DNA of 35,211 nt from positions 1 through 35,211 of IMG/VR virus record IMGVR_UViG_3300032301_000155; one strand, given 5' to 3'. Source of the stretch: a virus. Lineage: Duplodnaviria; Caudoviricetes. Of this stretch, positions 3,278 to 29,371 are shown piece after piece. Both the position numbers and the translations under genes were made by a program. Each line of letters starts with the position of its first letter. Positions within the stretch are counted from its first letter, which is position 1. The notes below the pieces were generated by a model that worked only from the letters and a program-made list of their open reading frames with translations, was not told the DNA's origin and did no database searches.

Positions 3278-5731
3278 TTAAGCCGTATAAGTTCCAGATG
3301 AATTGTAAGTAAGAATAGTGTTAGATCCTGATGTGGTTACTGTTGGTGATCCTGTAGTTGTTCCAGAGTAATTTGCGGTTGGGATAGAAAGAATAACTAT
3401 TCCTGAACCACCGTTTCCACCGTTTCCGCTACTACCACCTCCACCTCCACCGCCACCTAAATTAGTAGTTCCAGCAGTTCCAGCAACGCCAGGATTTCCA
3501 CCTGCTCCACCACCACCTGAACCACCAGAAGCACCAGTTCCTCCTGTGTAGCATCCACCACCGCCACCACCAGCGTAAGTTGTTGACGAACCGCTTATGC
3601 TTGATGCTACACCAGCACCACCTATGCCTCCTGTGGATGCTTGAGAATTTTGACCAACTGCACTTGCGCCACCACCACCAGCACCTGGATAAGGCGCACC
3701 TGTTGAACCGTTACCTCCAGCATATCCTTGATTTGCAGTTCCAGCGCCACCAGCAGCACTATCATTTCGACCACCGCCACCTGAACCACCTGCATTTCCC
3801 CCGCTTCCAGCACCATCTCCACCGCCACCGCCAGTTGATGTAACAGTAGAAAAAACAGAATTTGAACCATTAGAACCATTGGCAGTTCCAGTAGCACCAT
3901 TACCGCCACCACCGACAGTAATTGTGTAAGAAGTGCCTTTTGTTAATAACAATGCAGATTCTAGAGATCCACCACCACCAGTTGCCGTAACTGTGCTTCT
4001 TAAACCTCCAGCACCGCCACCGCCATTGCCTACTGTTGATCTTCCACCACCGCCACCACCAGCTACTACTAAATAATTAGCTAAATAGCTACCAATTAAA
4101 GATCCGCTAGATGTAAATGTATGAATTGTGTTGCCACCAGAAGATGTAACAGTACCGCCAGTAAATGCTTGTGATCCAGCGTAAGAGATGATTACAACAC
4201 CTGAGCCACCGTTGCCACCGTTGGAAACTCCTGCGCCTGATGGATTACCGCCACCACCACCGCCACCGCCTAAGTTCGCTGTACCAGCAGAACCATCACC
4301 AGTTTTTGAACCGTTACCACCACCACCCAAACCTCCAGTTCCACCAGAAGTACCATTAAAGTCAGCGCCACCACCGCCACCACCAGCGTAATATGTTGAT
4401 GTGCCACTTATTGATGAAGCTGTGCCATCACCACCGTTGCCACCAACAGATGTTGTTCCCGCAGCGCCTACTGTGGATGCACCGCCACCACCGCCACATC
4501 CGTATGCTGGGGAAGCACTAGCGCCAGCATGAAGTCCACCATTATTTCCTTGACTTGGGCTTGTAGAAGGGGTGTTGCCTTGTCCAGCAGATGTTGTATC
4601 TGAATATCCATTACCCCCTCCTGAGCCGCCATTACCACCAGCGGAAGTTGGTGCGCCATACGAGCCACCATTACCACCACCAGTTGATGTAATAGATAAA
4701 AATACAGAATTAGAACCACTAGTAGCCGCTACTACACCCGAAGCTAATGCACCATTACCACCAGCACCTACTGTTACTAGGTATGTTGAGTTTGTGTCAA
4801 TGGTTATGCCAGAACCAGTTCTAAATCCACCAGCACCGCCACCGCCACCATCACCAACACTAGATGAAGTTAAACCGCCACCACCTCCGCCACCACCAGC
4901 TACAATTAAATAGCTTGCTGTCAATTTAGACAATGGGCTTAATGTGCCAGACGAAGTGAAAGTGTGAATAAAGTTACCGCCTGATTGGGTAACTGTGCCA
5001 CCACCAAATAATTGAGTTGCGGATGTGTAGGAAATAATCACTACGCCTGAGCCACCAGACATTCCAGCGCCAGACCTAACACCTCCACCACCGCCACCTG
5101 TGTTAGCCGTTCCGCTTGTTGGTGCAACGCTTGTGCCTCCACCTTTACCGCCACCTCCATCACCGCCTGGATAACCATCAGCAGCAGAAAATGCAGAGCC
5201 ACCACCACCGCCAGCATAAGTAACGCTTGAGCCCGTTATGCTTGATGCTGTTCCATCGCCGCCATATCCTTGTCCGTCTGTATTTCCAGCCTCAGACGCA
5301 CCACCACCGCCGCCGCCATTATTAGCATCACCATTACCGCCTGCAAATCCTTGGCTTGCTGTACCAGCACTACCAGAACCACTTGTAGCGCCTCCTCCAC
5401 CTCCGCTACCGCCAACAGCACTTGGTAAAGTTCCAGCGTTGGTACCACCTTTACCGCCACCAATTGAAGTAATTGAATTGAATACAGAGTTACTACCATT
5501 AACATCTGAAGAGCCACCAGCTCCTACAGTAACTGTATAGGATAAAGTTAAATTTAATAAACTTGTTCCAGTTAAATATCCGCCAGCTCCTCCACCACCT
5601 CCAAGGTCACCAACATCTCCACCGCCACCTCCGCCAGCAACAACAAGATAACTTGCAGAAACGGCTGCTGCGCCTGTAGTCCAACCAAAGGCTGCTAGGG
5701 CTGCTGCACCAATTTTAGATAAGCGTGGCAT
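3278..5731 (-). CDS. glycine-rich tail/receptor-binding protein with three tandem glycine-rich domains
   Basis: 817 aa. Three units, each starting YLV/IVAGGGGG and ending GGSGV/IVII/LS, linked by GGTVT.SGGN.IHTFTSSG. Confidence 0.8.
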   Translation of the reverse strand: MPRLSKIGAAALAAFGWTTGAAAVSASYLVVAGGGGGGDVGDLGGGGGAGGYLTGTSLLNLTLSYTVTVGAGGSSDVNGSNSVFNSITSIGGGKGGTNAGTLPSAVGGSGGGGGATSGSGSAGTASQGFAGGNGDANNGGGGGGASEAGNTDGQGYGGDGTASSITGSSVTYAGGGGGSAFSAADGYPGGDGGGGKGGGTSVAPTSGTANTGGGGGGVRSGAGMSGGSGVVIISYTSATQLFGGGTVTQSGGNFIHTFTSSGTLSPLSKLTASYLIVAGGGGGGGGLTSSSVGDGGGGGAGGFRTGSGITIDTNSTYLVTVGAGGNGALASGVVAATSGSNSVFLSITSTGGGNGGSYGAPTSAGGNGGSGGGNGYSDTTSAGQGNTPSTSPSQGNNGGLHAGASASPAYGCGGGGGASTVGAAGTTSVGGNGGDGTASSISGTSTYYAGGGGGGADFNGTSGGTGGLGGGGNGSKTGDGSAGTANLGGGGGGGGNPSGAGVSNGGNGGSGVVIISYAGSQAFTGGTVTSSGGNTIHTFTSSGSLIGSYLANYLVVAGGGGGGRSTVGNGGGGAGGLRSTVTATGGGGSLESALLLTKGTSYTITVGGGGNGATGTANGSNGSNSVFSTVTSTGGGGGDGAGSGGNAGGSGGGGRNDSAAGGAGTANQGYAGGNGSTGAPYPGAGGGGASAVGQNSQASTGGIGGAGVASSISGSSTTYAGGGGGGCYTGGTGASGGSGGGGAGGNPGVAGTAGTTNLGGGGGGGGSSGNGGNGGSGIVILSIPTANYSGTTTGSPTVTTSGSNTILTYNSSGTYTA

Positions 5732-8331: not shown

Positions 8332-9242
8332 TAGATCATCCCGCTATAAGAACTTGGAATCCTTCTAGTAAATGTCGTATTTAAGACTGAAGTAGCTTGT
8401 TTGAGGTACTCTTGTTTAAAGATTTCTGATTCGCCAAAACTTTGCTCATAAAATTTAGCTAGATAAGCTGCATAAAATTTTACACAAGTGCTATACGGAT
8501 CGTTAATGCTATCGGTAACTGTTGGAGCTGATAACAAAAGGGCATTAGGAAGCACTACGCAATCAATTTCAACTTGATAAATTTGGTCTGGTACAGGTCC
8601 AATATAAATTTGTCCTTGACCGTACACGCTAAACGCAAGCGGTCTGCCAATGTAGTTTTGCCAAAAACGCAACCTCACATTAAAGTCTGTCCAGGCTAAA
8701 TAATCGAGTGGCACACGAGTATTTCCCCAATACAGGTTTATGTTCACAATATCTAGCACCGAGTTGCCAGAACTAGGCGCTAATGGTGAAGTTCCCATTA
8801 AATTAGTCAATGCACCATAAAGGATATTTTCGCAATTACCGACATACTGCAAAGTGGCTGTACCATCAGCAAACGCAGTTGAGGGCGGGTAGTTTGTGTA
8901 ATTATTTGTTCCACCATCAGGATATGGGGGTGCAGTAGAACTTGAAGTTCCACCTGTAATGTATTGATAAATAAAAATATTTGAAAATACAAAAGTATTT
9001 GCTGTAACAACAGTATCAGCTACCCATTGAGTTGGATAAGCTGGCGTTGCACTATTGATAGTATTAACTACTTGACAAGGAACTTGAGCAACAATAACTT
9101 CCCGTAATGCTCCAGTATCACGAACTACTCGCTCACGAGCAGAATTGATGTATGTCGTTAACTGTGTATCTGTATAGAAGTTAGCGTTAGCATCGTGGAG
9201 CAAATATCGGACATCTGTAAGATAAGATGACAGGGTTGCCAT
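8331..9242 (-). CDS. head-tail adaptor/tail tubular protein A-like
   Basis: TLSSYLTDVRYLLHD...YTDTQLTTYINSA, IYIGPVPD and YAAYLA are typical of podoviral adaptors; carries an insertion of about 70 aa. Confidence 0.65.
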   Translation of the reverse strand: MATLSSYLTDVRYLLHDANANFYTDTQLTTYINSARERVVRDTGALREVIVAQVPCQVVNTINSATPAYPTQWVADTVVTANTFVFSNIFIYQYITGGTSSSTAPPYPDGGTNNYTNYPPSTAFADGTATLQYVGNCENILYGALTNLMGTSPLAPSSGNSVLDIVNINLYWGNTRVPLDYLAWTDFNVRLRFWQNYIGRPLAFSVYGQGQIYIGPVPDQIYQVEIDCVVLPNALLLSAPTVTDSINDPYSTCVKFYAAYLAKFYEQSFGESEIFKQEYLKQATSVLNTTFTRRIPSSYSGMI

Positions 9243-9256
9243 TTAAGCTCCATAGA

Positions 9257-9595
9257 TCATGCTACCGCCTGGAGGATCTTTCCCCCAGCCCGCTTTGAAA
9301 CGGGTAGGGGTACTCTTTCCACCAACGGGGATAACGATTGGTTCTTTTTAGGTGGTTCGGTGGATAAATGCCACTTAGCAAGTTTTTCTAATCCTTGCTC
9401 AAGTTCGTTGGTTGTTTTTACCCACCCAAGCCTAGCCAAATATTTCATTTTGTCCTCGTCTTTGTAACCAAAAATGTGTCTTGCAAATTCTTCAGGGATC
9501 TCAACTGTTGATCCTTTTTTAAATTCATAAAAAACACCACCGAAGCCATCTTTTAGGTCTTGGTCTGAATTATTGGTTACAAAGATATTAGACAT
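9257..9595 (-). CDS. hypothetical virion morphogenesis protein
   Basis: 112-aa ORF between the capsid and tail genes. Confidence 0.7.
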   Translation of the reverse strand: MSNIFVTNNSDQDLKDGFGGVFYEFKKGSTVEIPEEFARHIFGYKDEDKMKYLARLGWVKTTNELEQGLEKLAKWHLSTEPPKKNQSLSPLVERVPLPVSKRAGGKILQAVA

Positions 9596-10065
9596 TAAAA
9601 ACTCACTACATCGCCATAAACAGCGAAATTAACGGTGTTGGTATTGCCTGAAGCAGTAACAACATTAACAAATAAGGCTGAGGTAGTAGATCCAGATACA
9701 GCAGTATTAGCGCTGTACGAACCTGCTATTGCTAAGTCTTGGTAACGACCAGCAGTTGTTAAATTGCTAAGTACCACATTAGCAACAACGGCATTAGAGA
9801 TATTGCCGTCACTACTTGTGGTAATAGAAATATTAGCAAGCGATACATTACCTGATGGATTGTTAGCAACAATTCTACGAATAATGACACTTCCAGAATT
9901 AGATACTGCTCCACCGTTTGTTAAGCCACCACTTAGTAAAGGCATTTCAACGCCAGTAACCGTTCCATTACCAGTCACATTTAGTAACTGTGCTACAGCG
10001 ATTGCAACACGAGCATTACCAAAATTATCTAAAGTAAAAGAACGAACTGCATTTGGATTAGCCAT
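9595..10065 (-). CDS. putative capsid decoration/cement protein
   Basis: 156 aa, beta-rich and Asn/Ser/Val-rich; second gene after the major capsid gene. Confidence 0.5.
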   Translation of the reverse strand: MANPNAVRSFTLDNFGNARVAIAVAQLLNVTGNGTVTGVEMPLLSGGLTNGGAVSNSGSVIIRRIVANNPSGNVSLANISITTSSDGNISNAVVANVVLSNLTTAGRYQDLAIAGSYSANTAVSGSTTSALFVNVVTASGNTNTVNFAVYGDVVSF

Positions 10066-10076
10066 TACTGTTCTCC

Positions 10077-10418
10077 TTAACTTGCAAAAGTGCTAGACAC
10101 AGGAGAACCACCATTTACAGTCACTAACTGTACTGTAGCGTTGGTAGTAGCCAATAACTGAACATTCGTACCGTCAGAAATAATCATTCCGCCTGAGTTA
10201 GTGGGGTACACATTTGAAAATGTAGCCACATTAGAGGTGGAGTTATAACTTGTGACAGTTTGAATGACCACATTGGATGTACCAATAACAAGGTAAGTTC
10301 CAGCAGGTACAACATTTCCTGCTGTGGTTGCAGCTATGTTTGCAGCAGCTTGAAAGTACGCACCTGGCGTATTTTCGTATGTACCTGCTATGAGGATTTT
10401 ATTTAAACCGAGTGCCAT
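10077..10418 (-). CDS. putative capsid decoration protein
   Basis: 113 aa, beta-rich; directly after the major capsid gene; AGGAG RBS. Confidence 0.5.
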   Translation of the reverse strand: MALGLNKILIAGTYENTPGAYFQAAANIAATTAGNVVPAGTYLVIGTSNVVIQTVTSYNSTSNVATFSNVYPTNSGGMIISDGTNVQLLATTNATVQLVTVNGGSPVSSTFAS

Positions 10419-10429
10419 GACTATTCTCC

Positions 10430-11440
10430 TTAGATAGAAATTGAGTTATAGCCAGAAACTCTGGTCATTGACTTAGGCTTAACGCTCACTAATTCAGCGA
10501 TCATTAAGACAGCGCCAACATAGCCGATCTGCCAGTTTGGTAGAGTTGATTCAAAACCAGTAAATACGAATGAACCTTGATCGTGAATATACAAGGATAA
10601 GTAGTTGCTGTTAATGAAATACACAGTACCTTCTGGGCAATACGGATCAGGATAGATTGGAACTCCAGCTACCATCAAAGCTCTAAACGCAGCTTGAGGA
10701 CCGTTGCTGTCACTATCAAAACCATGTCCTGGGGTAATAACATACTGCTCTTGACCAACATAGTCTTGAGCTAAAAGTGTCCAAGTACCAAAACCGCAAA
10801 CACCAAAAGTAGGCACTTCTGCACCGTTTTTAACAGTTCCAGAAATATACTGAAGAATGTTTTGACGAGTTGGGTTTACTGAACCTGCGTTATATACTTT
10901 TGACTTCCACCAAGTATTGGCTGTACGACTGATGTTACCGTAGGTAACCATGTTCGTACCGTCATCAATAGCACCTGGCAAGCCAATGAACTGTTGAGTG
11001 TTGGTGTAGTTGTTGTACAAAGCAGTTGCCATTGCATCCATCATCACATTGGTCGCATCATTCATACGAGCTTCAATGAGAGGGATAATTGCATAGTCTT
11101 GCTGAACTGCACCTTCCATACCAAGAAATGGTACTGGTGAGATCATCAGTTTTAAGTTGAACTCAGCGTTATACGCACCTTGTTGAACTGACGGCTGGTT
11201 AAACGAACCAGAGTAGTCAGACCATTGGGCGTTGACGAATTGAGCACCTTGAACTGGTACTGTTACTTGGGATACACCACCTGAAGCCTGTTGACTGTTA
11301 GCAATCAAAGCAGCCATGAGGGGTGTGCTGTTGTAAATCTGCACGACCAGTTTAGGGATAAACGCTCTACGAGTTACATAAGTAAGTTCGTTATATTGCG
11401 ATGAACCCGATGCTGGTACTATTCCGCCACCTATCGGCAT
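10430..11440 (-). CDS. major capsid protein
   Basis: 336 aa downstream of portal and scaffold; strong GGAG RBS; GVPIYPDPYCPEGTVYFINSNYL resembles the C-terminal region of HK97-fold capsid proteins. Confidence 0.85.
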   Translation of the reverse strand: MPIGGGIVPASGSSQYNELTYVTRRAFIPKLVVQIYNSTPLMAALIANSQQASGGVSQVTVPVQGAQFVNAQWSDYSGSFNQPSVQQGAYNAEFNLKLMISPVPFLGMEGAVQQDYAIIPLIEARMNDATNVMMDAMATALYNNYTNTQQFIGLPGAIDDGTNMVTYGNISRTANTWWKSKVYNAGSVNPTRQNILQYISGTVKNGAEVPTFGVCGFGTWTLLAQDYVGQEQYVITPGHGFDSDSNGPQAAFRALMVAGVPIYPDPYCPEGTVYFINSNYLSLYIHDQGSFVFTGFESTLPNWQIGYVGAVLMIAELVSVKPKSMTRVSGYNSISI

Positions 11441-11476
11441 AATAATTCTCCGTTAAAAATATCCCCTAAACTGCGA

Positions 11477-12016
11477 TTAAATGCCAATAGGTCTGGTGTT
11501 CTTACGCAGATCCATTAGCGCTTGTGCTGCTTCATTCCTTGCACCTTGAACTGGGTTTTTCCAATACTTAGAAAGGTCAAACTTACCAATGGCGCTCGGG
11601 TTGTAACCCATGCTGTTATTGCCTGCTGGAGTAGCTGCTTGTTTCATCCAATCCCAATACTGTGCTGCGGTTTCGTGATTGGTCATACCTTGCTCTAGCA
11701 TCAATTTTTCAATCTCTGCAATGTCCTCGTCTGTTTGAGCTAAACCTTTAGACTTTAGTTTTGCTCTACGATTTTCAAGTTCTTGCACAGCATCTTTTTC
11801 ACGCAGTTTAGCTTCTAATTGCATAACTCGTTCTTCGGCAGCGTTCACCTTTTTCTCGGTGTAGTCCTCAATGTCAAGTTCTGGAATTGGAAGATTTGGT
11901 CTGACTTTTTTGGTCAAACGCAATACTTCTTTGCGTGTAGCGGGATCTTCAGCCAAGTTTTTCATTAACAAGGCTAATTCATCCCGTTGTTCTAAACTGA
12001 TATCTTCTAAGCTCAT
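11477..12016 (-). CDS. putative scaffolding protein
   Basis: 179 aa, charged coiled-coil, immediately upstream of the major capsid gene. Confidence 0.6.
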   Translation of the reverse strand: MSLEDISLEQRDELALLMKNLAEDPATRKEVLRLTKKVRPNLPIPELDIEDYTEKKVNAAEERVMQLEAKLREKDAVQELENRRAKLKSKGLAQTDEDIAEIEKLMLEQGMTNHETAAQYWDWMKQAATPAGNNSMGYNPSAIGKFDLSKYWKNPVQGARNEAAQALMDLRKNTRPIGI

Positions 12017-12035
12017 AATCTATCCCCTTACTTAG

Positions 12036-12221
12036 TTAAATAACTTTTTTAGTATCGCCAGGCTTAGACATATTCATCATATTCTTGTAGCCAGCTTTAC
12101 CTGAAGAATCCAAGCCACCAAACTCTGAATAACGAGGAGTATTGATAACTTGACCATTTTTTTGATTGTTGTCAGTAGGTCTGCGAGGACTTGCTGAACC
12201 ACGAGGTTTAAAGAGTTCCAT
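12036..12221 (-). CDS. hypothetical protein
   Basis: 61 aa; AAGGA RBS; in the head operon. Confidence 0.65.
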   Translation of the reverse strand: MELFKPRGSASPRRPTDNNQKNGQVINTPRYSEFGGLDSSGKAGYKNMMNMSKPGDTKKVI

Positions 12222-12230
12222 AATGTTTCC

Positions 12231-12734
12231 TTACATTGCGGGGGTTGGAGGAGGCATACCGCCAGGAGCGCCACCGCCCATTGGGGGAGGAGGCATACCG
12301 CCAGGTGACATACCAGGGATTGCGGGTGCTTGTGCCATTGCTTTACCTTCAGGCGTTGCACCACCAGCTTGAGGTAATGTTTGTAACATTTGCATGATTT
12401 CTGCGGGTTGCAGCTCGTTAGTCTTAGCTTTCTTAGGACCAATTACGCTGCTCATTCCACGAATAGCTGATAGAACTCTTTGTCCTTCTGGGCTTTCGCT
12501 TCCTAGGGCTGGCAAAGATTGTTCTAACAAATCCATCGCCATTGAAATATTGATCATGGCCGCTTCACGATTACCCATCTTCGGTTCTGGGGTACTCATG
12601 GGTGAACCCATAGGAGGAGCAGAAGCATCAGACATTGCTTGTCCAGCATCAGCAGTAGGAGGCAAACCACCAGGAGTGGCTGAATCCTTCTGGCTTTGAA
12701 TCATTTTCATCAGTTGATCTGAGGGTACGCCCAT
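12231..12734 (-). CDS. Pro/Met/Gly-rich hypothetical head protein
   Basis: 167 aa with low-complexity termini and a helical core; first gene after the promoter at 12761-12788. Confidence 0.7.
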   Translation of the reverse strand: MGVPSDQLMKMIQSQKDSATPGGLPPTADAGQAMSDASAPPMGSPMSTPEPKMGNREAAMINISMAMDLLEQSLPALGSESPEGQRVLSAIRGMSSVIGPKKAKTNELQPAEIMQMLQTLPQAGGATPEGKAMAQAPAIPGMSPGGMPPPPMGGGAPGGMPPPTPAM

Positions 12735-12760: not shown

Positions 12761-12788
12761 ATCGTAATCTTAATCTATCAGATGTCAA
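12761..12788 (-). promoter_or_regulatory. sigma70-like promoter for the capsid operon
   Basis: Minus strand TTGACA-N16-TACGAT, about 27 nt upstream of ATG 12734. Confidence 0.6.
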
Positions 12789-12861
12789 GTGGGGAGGATT
12801 ATTTAGTTTCCCCCTCCCTCCAGGACTTGTTTGGTCACCCAAAGCAATCCTTACGGATTAC
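12786..12861 (-). other. three contiguous RNA hairpins, two with GNRA loops
   Basis: GUAAUCC-GUAA-GGAUUGC (12861-12844), UUUGG-GUGA-CCAAA (12843-12830), CAAGU..GGGAGG..CCUCCC.ACUUG (12829-12786). Confidence 0.55.
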
Positions 12862-12896
12862 TTACGAGCTTTACGACCTTTACGCTTTGTACGCAT
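12858..12896 (-). CDS. 12-aa basic micro-peptide MRTKRKGRKARK
   Basis: GGAGA-N7-ATG; TAA stop; paralogous to two adjacent micro-ORFs. An alternative in-frame ATG at 12929 lacks an RBS. Confidence 0.65.
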   Translation of the reverse strand: MRTKRKGRKARK

Positions 12897-12983
12897 TGTG
12901 ATTTCTCCAATAAGCGTTTGCCTACTCATTTTTTAGGGAGAGCAGGACACCCCTTTTCTCTTTCGTGTGAAGGAGCGAGAAAC

Positions 12984-13028
12984 TTATCTGCGGGTTTTAC
13001 GACCACGCTTGCCTTTTCTACCGTACAT
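12984..13028 (-). CDS. 14-aa basic micro-peptide MYGRKGKRGRKTRR
   Basis: GGAGA-N5-ATG; TAA stop. Confidence 0.65.
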   Translation of the reverse strand: MYGRKGKRGRKTRR

Positions 13029-13060
13029 ATTCATCTCCAGTTAGCTATCCCCTACTCAAA

Positions 13061-13102
13061 TTATTTGCAGCTTTTACGACCTTTGCGAGTTTTGCGAACC
13101 AT
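13061..13102 (-). CDS. 13-aa basic micro-peptide MVRKTRKGRKSCK
   Basis: GGAGG-N5-ATG; TAA stop. Confidence 0.65.
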   Translation of the reverse strand: MVRKTRKGRKSCK

Positions 13103-13120
13103 GTTGACCTCCAAAATGAA

Positions 13121-13285
13121 CTATCCCCTAACTGTACGACCATAAGTCCTAGCTTTTGGACCACGATCAAAATTCTGTGCTCCTGAAACACGATACTCTA
13201 AATTCGGTGATCGTTCACCACTTTTTAGCGAACCTGTAGTTACTCTGGGTTGATCTGCTTTAGGTTGTACATTTTGTTGTGCCAT
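13121..13285 (-). CDS. 54-aa hypothetical protein (MAQQNVQPKADQPRV...RTYGRTVRG)
   Basis: TAATG overlap with the portal stop; GAGG RBS; absent from the ORF track (54 aa). Confidence 0.7.
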   Translation of the reverse strand: MAQQNVQPKADQPRVTTGSLKSGERSPNLEYRVSGAQNFDRGPKARTYGRTVRG

Positions 13286-14910
13286 TAGCCTACCTCTGGT
13301 TCTTTCTTTCCTTTAGGAGCTGGAGCTTGCGGAGCTGGCTGGTTAGCTTGCTCCTTCTCCCGCTTCTTGAGTTTATCTTTAATTAATTGTTTCATTGGTG
13401 GTTCAACTAAGTCAAGCAATGATTCTTTGTCAATAGCTTGCGCTTTAAACAAATTAAATGCAAGAGAGCGTAAATCCTCTTGAAAAATAGGGCTGTTAGA
13501 GTGAGCATCTACTTTAACCACAAAGTCTGTAGTAAATTGCTCAATAATAAACGGCACATCATCCGAGTCTTTGTAATGGGTGTCGTTATAGGTTTGCATG
13601 AGCTTGAGATACAGCGTTGCCACCTTTTCCAAGCTATCTTCTACAATCAACGCCCTTTTTTTCGCCCTTGACGATCCAAGTCGGGCTAATTGACTGGCAT
13701 GACCTTGGCTTCTAACACCTGATTCACCTCTGCCACTAAGCACATTACTGATACCAGATACTTCGGCAAACATCGCATCAATTTCATGTAACACTTCAAA
13801 CAAGTCGGCTGGCATAGTAGGTGCTAGGCGCTCTACCTTAGCGTTAGGCATATCAGAAGCCAACAAACCCCCTGGGCGATTTAGTGCAAAATTCTTTTCA
13901 TCCAAAATGCCTGTAAAACCAACTAAGCTGGTAGGCGGTGATACTTGCTTGGACAATAGATCGAGAATTTCGGTCATACGGGCATTGCGAAGGGATTGCA
14001 ATAGCATGAGCTTTTGACATTCGGATGTTCCCCAATAGTAGTCATACTGTGGGTTAGGACAAATTTGCACAAAGGGCAATTCACCCTTTAGGAACAGGCT
14101 TGCGCCAGGTCTGTCATAAATAATGACATCGGGTGCAGCCATTGTGACGCATTGATAATCAGCAGTATCGTCATTCCATACCCACAACTCTTTCATCTCA
14201 ATGGTTTCTTCAGCAACTCTGGCTTTGTAGCGGTTCATACCGTACAACTCCATGTTGACATTACCGTAAATATTTGGACTGCTCTGGCTCATTACAATGC
14301 GATTAACGGCATCAGGAATATCCGATTCTTGCTCACGATAACCAGCCGTTACTCTAGCAACAATATCTTCTCGCTTGGGATGAGAGTAAAGGCGGTTATA
14401 CAGTTCACTCTTAGTGATGTAATAAGTTTGAACTATTGCTTCTTGCCTGTCTGTATAAGGTATATCTTCTCTTAACACGCCTATTGCAGAAGGCTCAATC
14501 ATGTAAGGGTAGATACCGTTGTTATATACCAACTTAACAAAAGTGCTGTTGTACACCAAGGCGTAAGTTAATGCGCTAGAAAATATTTGGTCTGCGTTAG
14601 AATTAAGCCACTCATCATTTAAGGCTTGGGTTAGTACACCCGCTTTTTTATGCTCCATATTAGGTACAGAAGCACCCAGATTAATAGAAAAGCGAGTAGT
14701 TTCAGCCGAATACAAAAAGCTCGTAAGCTGATCTAGGTGAGGATTGATTTTATTAAAGTACGCTGGCGGTTCTTCAGGTCCAGCGCCAAACAAAAAGTAT
14801 GACCGTTGTGTGGTGTAATCCCCACGCCTTTCTTCTCTTGATACCAAACACTTTTGGATCAGGTCTAAGTAAAAATATTCTCGCTCAGTATTATTTGACG
14901 GGATTTTCAT
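13285..14910 (-). CDS. portal protein
   Basis: 541 aa between terminase and capsid genes; FNKINPH and EVSGISNVLSGRG..GVRS motifs typical of P22-like portals. Confidence 0.85.
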   Translation of the reverse strand: MKIPSNNTEREYFYLDLIQKCLVSREERRGDYTTQRSYFLFGAGPEEPPAYFNKINPHLDQLTSFLYSAETTRFSINLGASVPNMEHKKAGVLTQALNDEWLNSNADQIFSSALTYALVYNSTFVKLVYNNGIYPYMIEPSAIGVLREDIPYTDRQEAIVQTYYITKSELYNRLYSHPKREDIVARVTAGYREQESDIPDAVNRIVMSQSSPNIYGNVNMELYGMNRYKARVAEETIEMKELWVWNDDTADYQCVTMAAPDVIIYDRPGASLFLKGELPFVQICPNPQYDYYWGTSECQKLMLLQSLRNARMTEILDLLSKQVSPPTSLVGFTGILDEKNFALNRPGGLLASDMPNAKVERLAPTMPADLFEVLHEIDAMFAEVSGISNVLSGRGESGVRSQGHASQLARLGSSRAKKRALIVEDSLEKVATLYLKLMQTYNDTHYKDSDDVPFIIEQFTTDFVVKVDAHSNSPIFQEDLRSLAFNLFKAQAIDKESLLDLVEPPMKQLIKDKLKKREKEQANQPAPQAPAPKGKKEPEVG

Positions 14911-15490: not shown

Positions 15491-15886
15491 CTATCCCCTT
15501 TCAAGCTGTTCGTCAAGTGTTTGGTCAAAATAATCATAACGATTAGCAATTCCCATTTTGATTGTGAATTGCCCGTTTACTAACTGCAATTTGCTTTCTT
15601 TTTTCAAAGCTGGGCGCGCTTCCTTGCGATATTCATAAAATTTGGTGTTATCTCGGTTTTGCATAATTGCAATTTGTCCATCTTTCCATTCTGTATACGC
15701 TTTTGACACCCTTCTTTGTACAAATTCAGATAAGGGCAAATTTTGATATAAAAAGACCTCTTTAATAATGCTTTCTGATACCCCTGCTAATTGCGCAAAC
15801 ATAGCAATGCTAATTTCGCGATTTTTATCTTTTAAAAAGCGGTACATTACTTTACGCAAAACGGTTTTAGGCAAAGTAGGTTTCAT
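15491..15886 (-). CDS. hypothetical protein, possible HTH
   Basis: ISIAMFAQLAGVSESIIKEV resembles a helix-turn-helix; ATGA-coupled to terL. Confidence 0.55.
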   Translation of the reverse strand: MKPTLPKTVLRKVMYRFLKDKNREISIAMFAQLAGVSESIIKEVFLYQNLPLSEFVQRRVSKAYTEWKDGQIAIMQNRDNTKFYEYRKEARPALKKESKLQLVNGQFTIKMGIANRYDYFDQTLDEQLERG

Positions 15887-17646
15887 TGGCCGTAAACCCC
15901 TATTCTTTTAAGGTAGTCCGATACATTGCGCCCAACCGTTAACTGCTCTGGGGTAAATTCATCTTGGGTACGAGATACATTCTTTGTAATCTTTTGAGCA
16001 ATCAATCTAGGCTGTACTTGTTCTGCAAAGGCAGCGCAAGCTAGGGCAGCAGCAATAACCCTGTCATCCTTGTTGCGACCTGAAGCCTCAATCGAGCCAC
16101 CATCACGCACAATGGTTTTCATCTCCTCAATGGTGTCCATATCGTAAATGTCCATCATGCCACGCTCAAAAAAGTCTTTCATGTAGGTCAGCATCCGCTC
16201 TTTGGTAGCTGCCGTTGTTAGCCAGCCAATGGAGTTGGACATCCCGCCAAGGGTGTCATTCCTGCGCCAAATGTAGTTTTGCATATTGGCATACACATCC
16301 ATGAGGTCTTTACCCATAGCGCTACCCATCGCAGCAGCCTGTCTGCGTAAGTTCTTTAGTTCATTAATCACCGCTTGCCCTGGACCATTAATTTCTAGGT
16401 TTAAAGTCGAGTTTTTGTATGCGCCAGCAAGGTGGGCAATAATCCATGCAAACTGGTAGGTGTTTAATTCTGAAGTAGCAAAGCAAGCAACTTGCTCTAA
16501 ACCATCGGCATATACCCTAAAGACCTGAATACAAAATCGATCAGCCCAGTCAGAGCTACCATAAGCTGGATCAGCACCAATAACATAATAAGCAGTATCA
16601 ACAGGTTCTTCCCATATTTTGAGAGTAGCCAGTCGTTCTGTGGATTTAATAACTTCCGTATCCTGAAAGTTAACCCCAAAGCTATAGCGGTAATAATCGC
16701 AGTTAATCTTTTTAAGCAATTTAACGGCATCGGTACACCTTGCGTTAGAGAAGAACGAAGTTCCCGTCATTACAAAAGCGTAGTCCTCGGTAGGCGGGAA
16801 TTCCTGATACATCAGGCTTTCATCCTTTATACCCTCACTCATCTTCCAACGCCACCAGGCTAATTGGCGGGAATTGATCTCAAAACCATAGAGCTTTTTA
16901 ATATCCCGTACCCATTCTTTTTCCTCACCCGTCATCCTGCCATCCCAGTACACCTTGTAGATTTGGGAATCTGGATCAGCCATGTATAGCTCATTGCGCC
17001 ACCAGCCACAAAAAATGGCTCGCTGGGTTCTAGCCCTTTTAGCGGTGACATACATATCGTGAAACATATTAAAACCACGAGCTGTCGATTCAAAGATATA
17101 CATCCGATCTGGATTGGTTTCCGCAAGGGAAGCTAGTAGGGAGGCTAGTCCTTCTTCATCTCCCCAGGAACTGGTTTCTGTTCCATGTAGGTATGTAATA
17201 GCCTTACCACGACCCAAACTTCCTTTCGCTCTAAGCCCAGCGACTTGATAAAAGAGACGGCTTCGGTTTTTGAGGGAAAGCTGATTTCGGTTGTGAGCAA
17301 TGAGCGGGATGCGATACTCTTTGGGCAAACCATCCATATACATGGCAAGGGTTGATCGGAACATATCCCGATTTTCTTCCGTATCAGTTGTGAGTGTGCC
17401 TTGAAGCCCTGGATGGGTGAAGTGCCAGTAGAGATCAAGTGCGAGTGATATTGTAGTGATTCCAAGTTGCCGACCTTTCAAGATGACAAAAAAATGGACA
17501 TCTTCCTCTAAACCTTTAGCAAACTCCTCCATGACATAAGTTTGCGTACCTAAAAGATGGTCCATATTGCGTAAGCCTTGCTCTTTGGTTTCAATCTTGA
17601 GCTGCTTACAAAAGTGGTAAAACTGGTTTAAATTAAATTTGCTCAT
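15883..17646 (-). CDS. terL: terminase large subunit
   Basis: Walker A ILKGRQLGITT, Walker B-like YLHGTE, coupling motif ESTARG, nuclease IGADPA and KDDRVIA. Confidence 0.95.
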   Translation of the reverse strand: MSKFNLNQFYHFCKQLKIETKEQGLRNMDHLLGTQTYVMEEFAKGLEEDVHFFVILKGRQLGITTISLALDLYWHFTHPGLQGTLTTDTEENRDMFRSTLAMYMDGLPKEYRIPLIAHNRNQLSLKNRSRLFYQVAGLRAKGSLGRGKAITYLHGTETSSWGDEEGLASLLASLAETNPDRMYIFESTARGFNMFHDMYVTAKRARTQRAIFCGWWRNELYMADPDSQIYKVYWDGRMTGEEKEWVRDIKKLYGFEINSRQLAWWRWKMSEGIKDESLMYQEFPPTEDYAFVMTGTSFFSNARCTDAVKLLKKINCDYYRYSFGVNFQDTEVIKSTERLATLKIWEEPVDTAYYVIGADPAYGSSDWADRFCIQVFRVYADGLEQVACFATSELNTYQFAWIIAHLAGAYKNSTLNLEINGPGQAVINELKNLRRQAAAMGSAMGKDLMDVYANMQNYIWRRNDTLGGMSNSIGWLTTAATKERMLTYMKDFFERGMMDIYDMDTIEEMKTIVRDGGSIEASGRNKDDRVIAAALACAAFAEQVQPRLIAQKITKNVSRTQDEFTPEQLTVGRNVSDYLKRIGVYGQ

Positions 17647-20480: not shown

Positions 20481-21803
20481 ATGACATTTAACCTAATGAG
20501 AGAAAGACAGCGCGGCACAAGCATAAGTAGTCTGCGCTCTGGTATTCGTCGCAATATGGAAGGTAATTGGCGACAAGGACGCGACGGCAGACTTTTAACA
20601 CTTAACTTGGTCTTAGAGCGTCGGCAGCTGCGCGACAACTTAGCAATCAGTCTAAGACATGCAATCATTCGCGGCGACGACAGCGAGGCTCTGGACGCGC
20701 TCAACAACTTGTCCAGTATTCGCGGCTCTTACACAACTTGGAGCGAATGGCTCGAAGATAAATTCGGCGCTACTTATTTTCAATGCTATGACTGCGACAC
20801 TCTGGACATCTGGGATAACTCTCACAATGTGCGCGACGATTACAGGGTTTGCGATTGTTGTGTCGAAAATTATTACTATAGTGAGCGTAACCAATACTAT
20901 GACGACGACGAGGACGACGAGGACGACGACAGCGGGTATTGCAATATCGGCGGCAGACATTCCAGCAAGCACAAGTTGGGTCATATAGCGTCCAGCTTTG
21001 ACACTCGCAAGCCGCGGGTTTTACTGGGACTTGAGTTAGAGATGGAAATATCTCGCGACATGGACATGGACGACAAAGCGGCAGACTTGCTTAATGCTAT
21101 CGGTCATATTGATGGCTCAAAATATTGCTTAATCGAAGAGGACGGCTCTATCGGTCATGGCTTTGAGATGGTTACGGGCTATACGGGTCTGGACATTCAT
21201 AAGCGACAACTCTCATTCTTTAAAAATCGTTTAGTCGGCGCAAAGTCTCACAACACAACAACATGCGGCTTGCATGTACATGTGTGCAAATCTGATATGA
21301 CTATGCTCCATGCCGCCAAAATGATTTTGTTTATCAATGACGAAAAGAACCATTCACTTATCAAAGCAATAGCGCGGCGCGACTCGTCCAGCTGGGCAAA
21401 AGTACACGACAAGCAGAATGACAAGTATTGGCTACACGACGCGATGAAGTACGACAACAAAGCGGCGAAGTTGCGTCATCTGAATTCAGACAGGTACGAG
21501 GCTTTGAATTTTCAAAATGAAAAGACAGTCGAATTCAGAATTTTTAAGGGCACGCTCAAATATTCGACGATTATGGCTTGCTTAGAATTTACCTATTCGA
21601 CATGGTTTTTTAGTCGCGACACAAGCCAGACGCGCTTAACGACAGACGAATTTTTACAATTTATTTGTTTAGAAAATAATCGCCGCGACACTACTTTTTT
21701 ACGCGCTTATCTACTTGAAAAGGGTTTCGTTTTGCCATTTATTAAAAAGCCGCGACCTGAAGTATTCGGCGGCTCTATCAACTCAACAAGCGAGGAAATT
21801 TAA
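20481..21803 (+). CDS. putative amidoligase (COOH-NH2 ligase superfamily)
   Basis: GLELE, EEDGSI..GFEMVT, TCGLHVHV, RYEALN and TVEFRIFKGT motifs; N-terminal CxxC...CxxC and an acidic linker; GGAG RBS. Confidence 0.88.
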   Translation: MTFNLMRERQRGTSISSLRSGIRRNMEGNWRQGRDGRLLTLNLVLERRQLRDNLAISLRHAIIRGDDSEALDALNNLSSIRGSYTTWSEWLEDKFGATYFQCYDCDTLDIWDNSHNVRDDYRVCDCCVENYYYSERNQYYDDDEDDEDDDSGYCNIGGRHSSKHKLGHIASSFDTRKPRVLLGLELEMEISRDMDMDDKAADLLNAIGHIDGSKYCLIEEDGSIGHGFEMVTGYTGLDIHKRQLSFFKNRLVGAKSHNTTTCGLHVHVCKSDMTMLHAAKMILFINDEKNHSLIKAIARRDSSSWAKVHDKQNDKYWLHDAMKYDNKAAKLRHLNSDRYEALNFQNEKTVEFRIFKGTLKYSTIMACLEFTYSTWFFSRDTSQTRLTTDEFLQFICLENNRRDTTFLRAYLLEKGFVLPFIKKPRPEVFGGSINSTSEEI

Positions 21804-21806
21804 TCC

Positions 21807-22826
21807 ATGTGTCTACTTATCACTCAATCACAACATTCGCCAAAATTGTCGAATGAATGGCTTACCGATTTTTACGAAAGCAATTCAGACGGCGTTGGCG
21901 TTATGACAATCGAAAATAGCCAGCTGGTTATCAATAAAATTTTGCCAAAATCGGCCCATGAATTTATTGATTTTTATCGCTCTAACATTGAAGGCCGCGA
22001 CTGCGCTTATCACTTGCGCATGCGCACACACGGCGCGACAGACCTAGAAAATTGTCACCCCTATGAAGTACTCAACAAAGCCGCGCATGGCATAGATTTA
22101 TGGCTTATGCACAATGGTATTTTGGCGACTGGTAATCAAAAGGACATTTCAAAGTCTGATACATGGCACTACATTCGCGACTACTTGCGTCCTATGCTTG
22201 CCAACAATTCAGACTATGCTTTTACGCAAGGGTTTGCCGACATTATTGGTGAGCATATTGGCGCAAGCAATAAATTCGTCTTAATGGACGGCTCTGGTCG
22301 CGTCGCCGTCGTTAATCGCTCTAGTGGGGTTTATTGGGGTGGCTTATGGCTTAGTAATACTTACGCGTGGAGCGCGTCTAAAAGCGTCTCTAAGACACCA
22401 ATTAAGGGTCTTAAAAAGCAAGCCAAACAAGTCAAAGAAAAGCCAGCGGCTCGCGTCCAGTACGCAAAATATCCGAAGTACTGGGGAAATAAGACGGCGA
22501 TTGGTTACATGGACGGCTATGGCTATGACAATGACGACGACGAAAGCGGCGACTACTGGGACTATTTCGACGACATTGAAATTATGCTTTCAGACATGGC
22601 AGAGAATGGCTATAGCAAAGCCGCAAGCGTCTCGCTTAATACTTGCATGGACTTTGTTAATCAATTCGGTCTGGATGCTTTTAATGAAGTCTCTTACATG
22701 GTTTTGGACGGCAACATTGGCGAGGACTGGTACATCAAAGTAATGACCGACGAAATAGCGGCTCGCGAGGCTTTCCCATTTTTAGGGTCTAGCTACTCTG
22801 GAAAGGGTTACCAATATGCAGAATAA
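21807..22826 (+). CDS. class II (Ntn) glutamine amidotransferase
   Basis: N-terminal Met-Cys, NSDGVG, HLRMRTHG, NCHPY, MHNG, SDT; GAGG RBS. Confidence 0.9.
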   Translation: MCLLITQSQHSPKLSNEWLTDFYESNSDGVGVMTIENSQLVINKILPKSAHEFIDFYRSNIEGRDCAYHLRMRTHGATDLENCHPYEVLNKAAHGIDLWLMHNGILATGNQKDISKSDTWHYIRDYLRPMLANNSDYAFTQGFADIIGEHIGASNKFVLMDGSGRVAVVNRSSGVYWGGLWLSNTYAWSASKSVSKTPIKGLKKQAKQVKEKPAARVQYAKYPKYWGNKTAIGYMDGYGYDNDDDESGDYWDYFDDIEIMLSDMAENGYSKAASVSLNTCMDFVNQFGLDAFNEVSYMVLDGNIGEDWYIKVMTDEIAAREAFPFLGSSYSGKGYQYAE

Positions 22827-28455: not shown

Positions 28456-28560
28456 GACGGCAGTTAAGCCGACACTCAAGGATGTCATGTGTATATTTTT
28501 TCGGCTTTCCTATACACATATACATTGAAATGTATATAAAACGACCAAATTGATGCCGTT
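28456..28560 (-). ncRNA. candidate structured RNA with a pseudoknot
   Basis: Nested stems ACGGCA/UGCCGU, UCAA/UUGA, GUCGU/AUGAC, UAUACAU/AUGUAUA and UGUGUAUA/UAUACACA. The last loop contains AAGCCGA, complementary to downstream UCGGCUU. Confidence 0.55.
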
Positions 28561-28723
28561 ACCGCTTGCTTTTTCTGCGTGTTTTTTTTGCCGTCTTTGC
28601 CGACTGTCTAAATGCTGATGCGGTTGGAGCGCCCTTTGATCCAGGCTTTCTCATTTTCTCGCCTGAGCCTTTGCGGATACGCTCTCTCTTTTTATGGATA
28701 TTGGCATAAAGTCCAGGTTTCAT
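28559..28723 (-). CDS. 54-aa highly basic protein (MKPGLYANIHKKRERIRKGSGEKMRKPGSKGAPT...)
   Basis: ATGA overlap with the upstream gene; Lys/Arg-rich; absent from the ORF track (54 aa). Confidence 0.8.
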   Translation of the reverse strand: MKPGLYANIHKKRERIRKGSGEKMRKPGSKGAPTASAFRQSAKTAKKTRRKSKR

Positions 28724-28944
28724 CTACACCCCCATCTCTTTCTGGCAGCTTTGCCTCGTTCACCCTTCCAACTTTTGGATCTGGCACAAAATGACTTATG
28801 CCGAGGTCCTGATTTTGTTGGTGCTTTTAATTTGCTTCCTGTTGCTCGGTTGTATTTCTTTCTTCCTTTGGCTGTTAATCCACCGCCTTGGCTTACTGAG
28901 AGCTTTTCTCCACGACCTACGGAAAGATTGGTACTCTTAGGCAT
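28720..28944 (-). CDS. 74-aa highly basic protein (GGLTAKGRKKYN...SFCAR...ARKRWGC)
   Basis: Start reassigned to MPKST after an AAGGA RBS; motif typical of small basic phage proteins. Confidence 0.75.
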   Translation of the reverse strand: MPKSTNLSVGRGEKLSVSQGGGLTAKGRKKYNRATGSKLKAPTKSGPRHKSFCARSKSWKGERGKAARKRWGCR

Positions 28945-29371
28945 AAGGTCTAGTTCCTTGTTTATCAATGATTAGAGTTTGTTTTCTTGGCTTTAGATCA
29001 TTATGACTTGGTACTGAGATATGTGTCCAGCGATCAAATTCTCTAATCACTTGGTCAAAATCAAGCTCTGAAGCCATCACAGCTTTAACTACCTCATCAG
29101 GTGTCATGCCAGGCACACGAATGTCAGCAGCGCACCCTATACGGTGCTGGCTAGTGTCTTTAGAACCTACGGCATCATTGACTTGTTTAGATCGAAAAGC
29201 AGAGTTAACCATAATTGGTCTGCCTTCTAATACGGTTTTAACTTCCTCTAAAAACAAGGCAAGGCGTTGTAAGTTAGATAACTCAGCATCATTAGGGGTA
29301 TTGTCAAACTCCCGATGATCGGTGTGAGTTAATTCCTCTAGCGTGAAATGCTCACTTAGATTTGTTGGCAT
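28937..29371 (-). CDS. peptidase M15A-family endolysin
   Basis: LSEHFTLEEL, NSAFRS..VN.AVG, SQHRIGCAADI and WTHIS zinc ligands; start MPTNL after an AGGA RBS. Confidence 0.9.
   Translation of the reverse strand: MPTNLSEHFTLEELTHTDHREFDNTPNDAELSNLQRLALFLEEVKTVLEGRPIMVNSAFRSKQVNDAVGSKDTSQHRIGCAADIRVPGMTPDEVVKAVMASELDFDQVIREFDRWTHISVPSHNDLKPRKQTLIIDKQGTRPYA

Follow-up and report, generated by a model that had tools for sequence, protein, structure and literature searches.

Comparative sequence analysis has confirmed that three tandem micro-ORFs in the head module of this tailed phage, encoding peptides of 12-14 residues, are genuine protein-coding genes under purifying selection. From their composition and by analogy with known virion proteins, we lean towards reading the peptides as head-internal polycations that would partially neutralize the packaged DNA. 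The window, i.e., the whole 35,211-base stretch analysed, is a complete virus record with direct terminal repeats. The sequence-only reading had described three tandem minus-strand ORFs in an apparent gap between the portal and capsid genes, each with a GGAGG or GGAGA Shine-Dalgarno (SD) site 5-7 nt upstream and a TAA stop, and all of this was borne out (SD-to-ATG spacing is 5 nt for A, 5 nt for B and 7 nt for C). The array does lie between the portal and capsid genes, but it does not directly precede the latter, as genes of 167, 61 and 179 aa intervene. In minus-strand order, the features of the region are as follows:

15883-17646, minus strand: terminase gene, assigned by PHROG and Pfam families
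13285..14910, minus strand: portal protein, 541 aa, matching PHROG portal families and Pfam SU10_portal above cut-off
13121..13285, minus strand: conserved 54-aa ORF, net charge +6, which overlaps the stop of the portal gene and supplies, with its final codons, the leader of copy A
13102-13061, minus strand: micro-ORF A, 13 aa, net +7, MVRKTRKGRKSCK; SD GGAGG at 13112-13108; penultimate Cys; TAA stop
13028-12984, minus strand: micro-ORF B, 14 aa, net +8, MYGRKGKRGRKTRR; SD GGAGA at 13038-13034; TAA stop
12955..12982, minus strand: predicted hairpin between the stop of B and pseudoknot 1, found by eye in an alignment of relatives
12921..12954, minus strand: predicted H-type RNA pseudoknot 1, just upstream of the ribosome-binding site of C
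12896-12858, minus strand: micro-ORF C, 12 aa, net +8, MRTKRKGRKARK; SD GGAGA at 12908-12904; TAA stop; the constant last copy
12827..12859, minus strand: two predicted small tetraloop hairpins after the stop of C, from alignment and folding, variable among relatives
12792..12825, minus strand: predicted H-type RNA pseudoknot 2, whose end is 3 nt short of the -35 hexamer
12761..12788, minus strand: sigma-70-like promoter site TTGACA-16-TACGAT before the 167-aa gene (one site, against a chance mean of 1.8)
12231..12734, minus strand: 167-aa Pro/Met/Gly-rich gene of the head module, preceded by the micro-ORFs lineage-wide
12036-12221, minus strand: conserved 61-aa gene, net +6, following the 167-aa gene
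10430..12221, minus strand: the 61-aa gene, a 179-aa likely scaffold gene and the gene for the 336-aa major capsid protein (context)
10430-11440, minus strand: major capsid protein (phrog_9953, E 4e-36)

Searches of PHROG and Pfam matched no family to the 54-aa ORF, the 61-aa gene or the 167-aa gene; the look-alikes of the last are unnamed viral proteins only, and the 54-aa ORF carries no annotation in MW202825.1. The 179-aa protein is likely the scaffold, judging from gene position, and the 167-aa protein is a candidate partner of the micro-ORF peptides. Tail- and ejection-type genes recognized by PHROG and Pfam also lie on the minus strand, among them a gene for an 817-aa protein with glycine-rich repeats (3278-5731, minus). 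The portal is of the SU10/P22 type and there is no tape-measure gene; therefore, the virion is predicted from gene content to be short-tailed. The capsid family comprises 2,919 clusters at 90% identity and has no close cultured member among the matches found, the closest GenBank genomes being two from a freshwater spring with 87-88% capsid identity. Four genome matches are phage contigs whose bins belong to three different groups (betaproteobacterial for two, Saccharibacteria for one and Terrimicrobiaceae for one), so no reliable host can be named. An AlphaFold model of a related capsid protein, built on a 7-row alignment, has a mean pLDDT of 41, and a PDB sequence search returned a single match (E 0.17). 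The early region holds an amidoligase and class II glutamine amidotransferase gene pair (20481-22826, plus).

Several lines of evidence separate the three micro-ORFs from chance reading frames. The window contains 474 short ORFs (ATG start, 8-35 aa; 201 on the plus and 273 on the minus strand), 18 of which have an SD-like site, and only A, B and C combine such a site with a K+R content of at least 40%. An order-3 Markov model predicts 0.075 SD-led basic micro-ORFs by chance on each strand, and when the gap was shuffled 20,000 times, two or more appeared once. The conserved ribosome-binding sites and short basic ORFs expected in relatives were found: a close set of 80 IMG/VR loci, collected through the 167-aa neighbour and not de-duplicated, includes two without upstream DNA, and all 78 assessable loci possess at least one SD-led basic micro-ORF. 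Selection on the peptides, as had been proposed, is supported by pN/pS values over the last six codons of distinct tails, the micro-ORFs having been chosen by an Arg+Lys filter. In close loci the last copy gave a ratio of 0.11 over 12 distinct tails and the second-last copy one of 0.29 over 21, and with more distant, anchor-found loci included the values were 0.58 (31) and 0.31 (27); motif-filtered sets gave 0.16 and 0.28 in frame vs 2.2-9.4 in shifted frames. Since the filter itself lowers pN/pS and the sequences are related, these values serve as support rather than as a formal test.

Another pattern, independent of the filter, fixed only the last seven codons and the stop. It yielded 120 viral matches, 116 of them within the head module, and one further match (L189), read by eye, is a distant member of the lineage. 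Among 102 distinct matches, the nearest SD-led ATG was in frame in 100, absent in 2 and out of frame in none, with nine different ATG-to-tail distances that are all multiples of three. On metagenome contigs, an SD-led micro-ORF accompanied 77/77 matches with head-gene context vs 4/42 elsewhere. Variation is mostly at third positions, with both Ser codon blocks in use, and the final codon of the second-last copy specifies Arg in 93/93 distinct CDSs by means of all six Arg codons. Because this region is structured RNA in the close family, the ORFs might be taken not for genes but for an incidental product of a structured non-coding RNA or of purine-rich repetitive DNA; the codon usage just described, the in-frame starts and the persistence of the ORFs in loci devoid of pseudoknots reduce the probability of such an origin almost to nothing. 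The expectation that gene callers would miss these genes also proved right, as both GenBank relatives contain two copies each, unannotated beneath opposite-strand hypothetical CDSs. Three lake metatranscriptome runs contained 5-8% of words, and their contigs comprised scraps of 9934-11978 only, leaving the array uncovered.

The three copies are related to one another at the DNA level, with stop-anchored identities of 26/39 (A-C), 24/42 (A-B) and 19/39 (B-C). Likenesses between leaders had been cited as a sign of a duplicated unit, and this holds in part. The string TAGGGGATAG in the leader of A, which represents the final codons and stop of the 54-aa ORF, is repeated in the leader of B. The string TGAGTAGG before C forms one side of a pseudoknot, and most relatives have other letters there; its likeness is therefore probably due to chance and was rejected as evidence of duplication. 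Folding of nested structures gave no clear ranking of the openness of the SD sites.

Copy number and position were surveyed across the lineage, whose genomes span 38% to 70% GC. In the 71 close loci that reach the portal end, one copy is present in 14, two in 48 and three in 9, making copy A of the window an optional third copy; the largest array has four (L312), for an overall range of 0-4. On a rough 87-locus tree, built from 420 columns with weak support and to which recombination may contribute, 11 copy-number changes are counted (19.5 on average and at least 15 after shuffling), and two changes account for the three-copy state. A distant set consisted of 131 further loci obtained with distant capsid proteins and 5 found earlier, 107 of them extending 2.2 kb or more beyond the capsid gene on its upstream side. 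A basic micro-ORF occurs no more than 3 kb upstream in 84/107. The 316 kb upstream of the capsid gene contain 122 basic micro-ORFs and the 238 kb downstream contain 0, while 5 lie antisense. With a wider span and one locus per capsid sequence the count is 80/91. The 11 misses include two loci with an ORF led by another form of SD (L288, L309), three with a longer basic ORF only (L292, L294, L298), one with a weaker ORF (L276) and one probably clipped by the extent of sequence taken (L287); no basic micro-ORF is present in the slot of L253, L273, L274 or L303, or in that of L280 and L283, which form with L253, L273 and L274 a clade at 86% capsid identity. In two clades at 32-45% capsid identity, the micro-ORF is found in 39/44 distinct loci and absent in 5, with 1 match in 81 kb of downstream control sequence. 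These true absences indicate that the gene is usual but dispensable.

Among cultured remote relatives (Mx8, Mx9, BUCT555 and ppBjS10J-1; capsid identity 24-27%), no SD-led basic micro-ORF was found in the portal-capsid gaps, and matches in Mx9 and a TM7 phage record were set aside as lying inside annotated genes. A pattern search of five whole records for relocated micro-ORFs missed its two positive controls. In Stenotrophomonas phage BUCT555, the portal gene is immediately followed by an annotated hypothetical gene of 52 aa that is rich in Lys (L341:3442-3600), a possible analogue of the micro-ORFs. In a high-GC clade (L288-L294, L298), a second basic ORF of 30-45 aa with the core His...Ala-Arg-Arg/Lys-Asn-Leu/Val...Ala-Arg lies just upstream of the 167-aa homologue, beside the micro-ORF or replacing it.

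One rearrangement bears on the partners of the micro-ORFs. In L114, L127 and L352-L398, the portal gene points the opposite way from the capsid operon and stands back to back with the promoter-like site found before the micro-ORFs. In this clade, 34/35 loci retain one to three micro-ORFs heading the capsid block, mostly in first place directly behind the promoter-like site. The micro-ORFs thus belong with the scaffold and capsid genes, not with the portal.

The positive charge of the peptides is conserved. Net charge is +7 to +9 in 108/117 close peptides and +5 to +9 in 62/63 distant ones; the median length is 13 in both sets, within a lineage range of 9-21 aa. The close set is 62.5% K+R and 0.1% D+E, the large hydrophobic residues W, F, L, I and V making up 0.5% of it, and the distant set is 54.8% K+R with 4.0% D+E. 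Across 80 loci, Arg/(Arg+Lys) rises with genome GC (rho 0.68) while the Arg+Lys share stays flat at about 65% (rho 0.07), both statistics ignoring kinship. That charge remains steady near +8 while the choice between Arg and Lys follows GC argues that selection acts on charge. In some distant copies the N-terminus is extended by a short non-basic stretch, while the window peptides are basic from residue 2-3. The near lack of hydrophobic residues bears on a role as cationic membrane-permeabilizing helpers of lysis or entry, which only the high positive charge would recommend; the peptides can form no amphipathic face, and their genes keep to the head module, some 16 kb away from the gene for the endolysin, so that we regard this role as extremely improbable.

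A second property of the peptides is a fixed C-terminal register. Arg occupies position -5 in 112/117 close and 51/63 distant peptides and position -2 in 95/117 and 49/63, and Cys, when present, is at -2 in 13/15 and 6/9 cases in the two sets. The tail KGRKxRK or GRK is found again where capsid identity is 38-42%. The pattern points to a repeating Arg-Lys-small unit, and the register, which is more than a plain counter-ion requires, possibly marks a C-terminal docking site. Distinct C-terminal types persist, with a Cys-ending type in both clades; the proposal that the array is amplified by copy number therefore holds insofar as the number varies, but the copies are not plain dosage repeats. 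These features would also suit low-copy, site-specific virion peptides that dock by their C-termini at the portal, tail channel or ejection core and either grip the DNA end or enter the cell along with the DNA and shield it. Precedents exist: six copies of the basic T7 gp7.3 are described as gripping the DNA end in the tail channel (PMC11784390), and T4 IPI is reported to inhibit a restriction enzyme (PMC9026906). We nevertheless judge such a role unlikely, as the genes track the capsid block rather than the portal after its inversion, a low-copy part needs neither tandem copies that change so often on the tree nor strong SD sites, and the peptides have no hydrophobic anchor residues. A search of eight late proteins for acidic docking patches revealed nothing beyond net -5 per 12 residues. 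Nor was compensation by the capsid seen: in loci without the peptide its net charge is -4 to -11, vs a mean of -4.7, and thus is not higher.

In the subfamily to which the window belongs, the last copy is bracketed by predicted RNA folds. Both consist of two interleaved stems with compensatory changes and on that pattern belong to the H-type pseudoknot class. In a fixed-shape search, a pseudoknot was found before the last copy in 73/136 distinct loci vs 50/680 shuffles and after it in 97/135 vs 38/675, with 2/120 in coding controls. A variant shape, allowing one mismatch and stricter for pseudoknot 2, identified pseudoknot 1 in 78/134 vs 8/402 shuffles and pseudoknot 2 in 48/135 vs 4/405. The folds occur in 59 (pseudoknot 1) and 67 (pseudoknot 2) forms with several pair types per position, although parsing by a custom script makes the pair counts lean toward the fold sought. 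Pseudoknot 1 of the window differs in its letters from most relatives, yet its pairing is complete. The whole 35-position Rfam model DUF805b (RF02914) aligns to it with an E of 0.0043 (20.3 bits, cut-off 35.6); its stem letters would constitute an unusual DUF805b variant, and hence the match speaks for a similar shape more than for kinship. In 8 relatives, no Rfam family was matched at cut-off, so that the two pseudoknots stand outside Rfam families at that threshold.

The pseudoknots likely protect the short message or aid ribosome loading. A comparable element has been described in the tisB mRNA, where a 5' pseudoknot acts as an S1-dependent standby element that promotes translation of a very small ORF (PMC7708055). 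That pseudoknot lies far upstream of a sequestered ribosome-binding site and serves a hydrophobic toxin, whereas the one described here is 17-22 nt from the start codon and a second pseudoknot lies downstream. The tight coupling of fold and ORF, a basic micro-ORF following the pseudoknot 1 pattern at that distance in 90/90 assessable cases (92 distinct, 2 too short), is what might be expected of peptides that bind nucleic acids in the infected cell rather than in the virion. As arginine-rich-motif peptides they could act on the flanking hairpins and pseudoknots or on other RNA, providing feedback on late expression, or they could compact replicating or host nucleic acid. The arginine-rich motif of lambda N recognizes an RNA hairpin, and GNRA-like hairpins, seen in the alignment, flank the micro-ORFs. 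The peptides are devoid of an effector domain, however, and the variant fold precedes the second-last copy in 2/103 loci only. Moreover, the pseudoknots were scored in the close family, and in several close loci and in distant loci read by eye the peptide is kept without them, indicating that the folds are accessories of this subfamily; we consider an intracellular role of this kind quite improbable.

The order of elements in the inverted-portal clade, where the micro-ORF often comes immediately after a promoter-like site and ahead of a strong hairpin, raises the further idea of leader peptides whose Arg/Lys runs stall ribosomes or sense charged tRNAs to control the downstream head genes by attenuation. 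An attenuator would consist of a single ORF between the promoter and the regulated genes with overlapping alternative RNA structures, and the arrangement found here departs from this, the order fitting the inverted-portal clade only. Up to four tandem copies occur, each with its own SD site, the Arg codons are common ones, and Arg and Lys replace each other. In 133/144 close loci a promoter-like TTGAC separates the last copy from the gene that follows, uncoupling the array from the capsid genes. Attenuation is therefore very unlikely. In the window itself, the capsid block has its promoter-like site downstream of the array, and co-transcription of the array with the capsid gene is therefore not assured.

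We return to head-internal polycations as the favoured function. Gene order and the promoter-like sites suggest that the peptides would be made in bulk late in infection together with the scaffold and capsid proteins; strong SD sites, tandem copies and, for copy C in this subfamily, the pseudoknot-bracketed stretch would ensure high output. They would likely enter the prohead, either riding on DNA or by docking of the C-terminal Arg-x-x-Arg-Lys/Arg end on the scaffold or shell. Once enclosed, they would offset some of the charge on the packaged DNA, serving as a substitute for polyamines that the phage makes itself and that does not diffuse. The capsid protein, with a net charge of -6, is acidic and lacks a basic arm. 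The DNA-condensing role originally suggested is unlikely in its full form: neutralization of all 70,422 phosphates needs about 8,800-10,000 peptides, equivalent to 14-24% of the volume of an assumed 50-60-nm cavity, while one peptide for every subunit, with the shell assumed to be T=7, covers 4-5% of the phosphates. In lambda heads, DNA condensed by polycations is reported to jam and ejection is blocked, and the same source describes penta-arginine as a DNA-attraction agent on herpes capsids (PMC7377361). Both the low coverage and the jamming of DNA by polyvalent cations make partial screening more plausible than condensation.

Microviridae J proteins provide the best model for how the peptides would work. 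The J protein of phiX174 is described as a small basic protein inside the capsid that is involved in packaging (PMC11945456), and J proteins are given as under 40 residues long, with uncertain stoichiometry (PMC7096446). The micro-ORF peptides are likewise short (<40 aa), highly basic and separately encoded. The settings differ, J serving an ssDNA T=1 virus that packages during synthesis with 60 copies, and the peptides of 9-21 aa, from 1-4 gene copies, a dsDNA terminase phage. J is encoded next to capsid protein F in an ssDNA microvirus, in contrast to a 35-kb phage with a tailed-phage terminase, portal and head protein, and the micro-ORFs are genes that some relatives do without. The hydrophobic/aromatic C-terminus of J binds the capsid, whereas the C-termini of the micro-ORF peptides are Arg/Lys.

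[quoted passage not shown] The micro-ORFs are similarly basic, non-essential and variable in number (0-4 copies), but the T4 proteins are folded and of 8-20 kDa compared with 1.5-1.8 kDa, and they have a cleaved 10-residue N-terminal capsid-targeting propeptide, of which no counterpart is evident in the 12-14-aa peptides. The micro-ORF products would thus work like phiX174 J or the T4 internal proteins, yet they lack defining features of both. T7 gp7.3, a small basic podophage virion protein reported to contact DNA (PMC11784390), differs in being a nozzle-anchored protein of 99 aa from a single gene, present in six copies. Baculovirus P6.9 and adenovirus pVII have been described as Arg/Lys/Ser/Thr-rich proteins that neutralize DNA, and the micro-ORF peptides share this protamine-like composition (Arg/Lys above 50%, Gly/Ser/Ala/Thr spacers and almost no acidic residues). 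P6.9 and pVII are several times longer and show no homology, the genomes that they condense are not confined by a pressurized terminase-filled head in the same manner, and P6.9 is phospho-regulated.

In the literature searched, there were no free-standing basic genes of 9-21 aa in tailed-phage head modules; a small-phage-gene catalogue (Fremin 2022) and the DUF805 supplement lie outside that search and may bear on novelty. Motor-packaging tailed phages as a class are considered to balance genome charge with Mg2+ and host polyamines, not with basic capsid domains (PMC7096446). A dedicated, lineage-wide and copy-variable polycation gene would, if true, revise this picture. We entertain, as a tentative and rather doubtful extension, that a lineage of terminase-packaging tailed phages spanning 38-70% GC makes its own protamine of 9-21 residues from a pseudoknot-bracketed mini-message, that C-terminal docking loads it, and that copy number sets head pressure and virion stability at low outside salt; with the same reserve, the micro-ORFs, if structural, would be among the smallest viral structural genes. 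Such genes would make head pressure, packaging and ejection accessible to genetic study, given that natural variants with 0-4 copies exist and the peptides are cheap to synthesize. Whatever their function, they represent a conserved class of phage genes overlooked by gene callers, Pfam-type searches and tryptic proteomics. Two further basic late-strand ORFs lie beside the endolysin gene, one of 54 aa (28559-28723, minus; net +18, no Pfam family) and one of 82 aa (28720-28968, minus; net +19, DUF6321), and they are possibly additional nucleic-acid binders.
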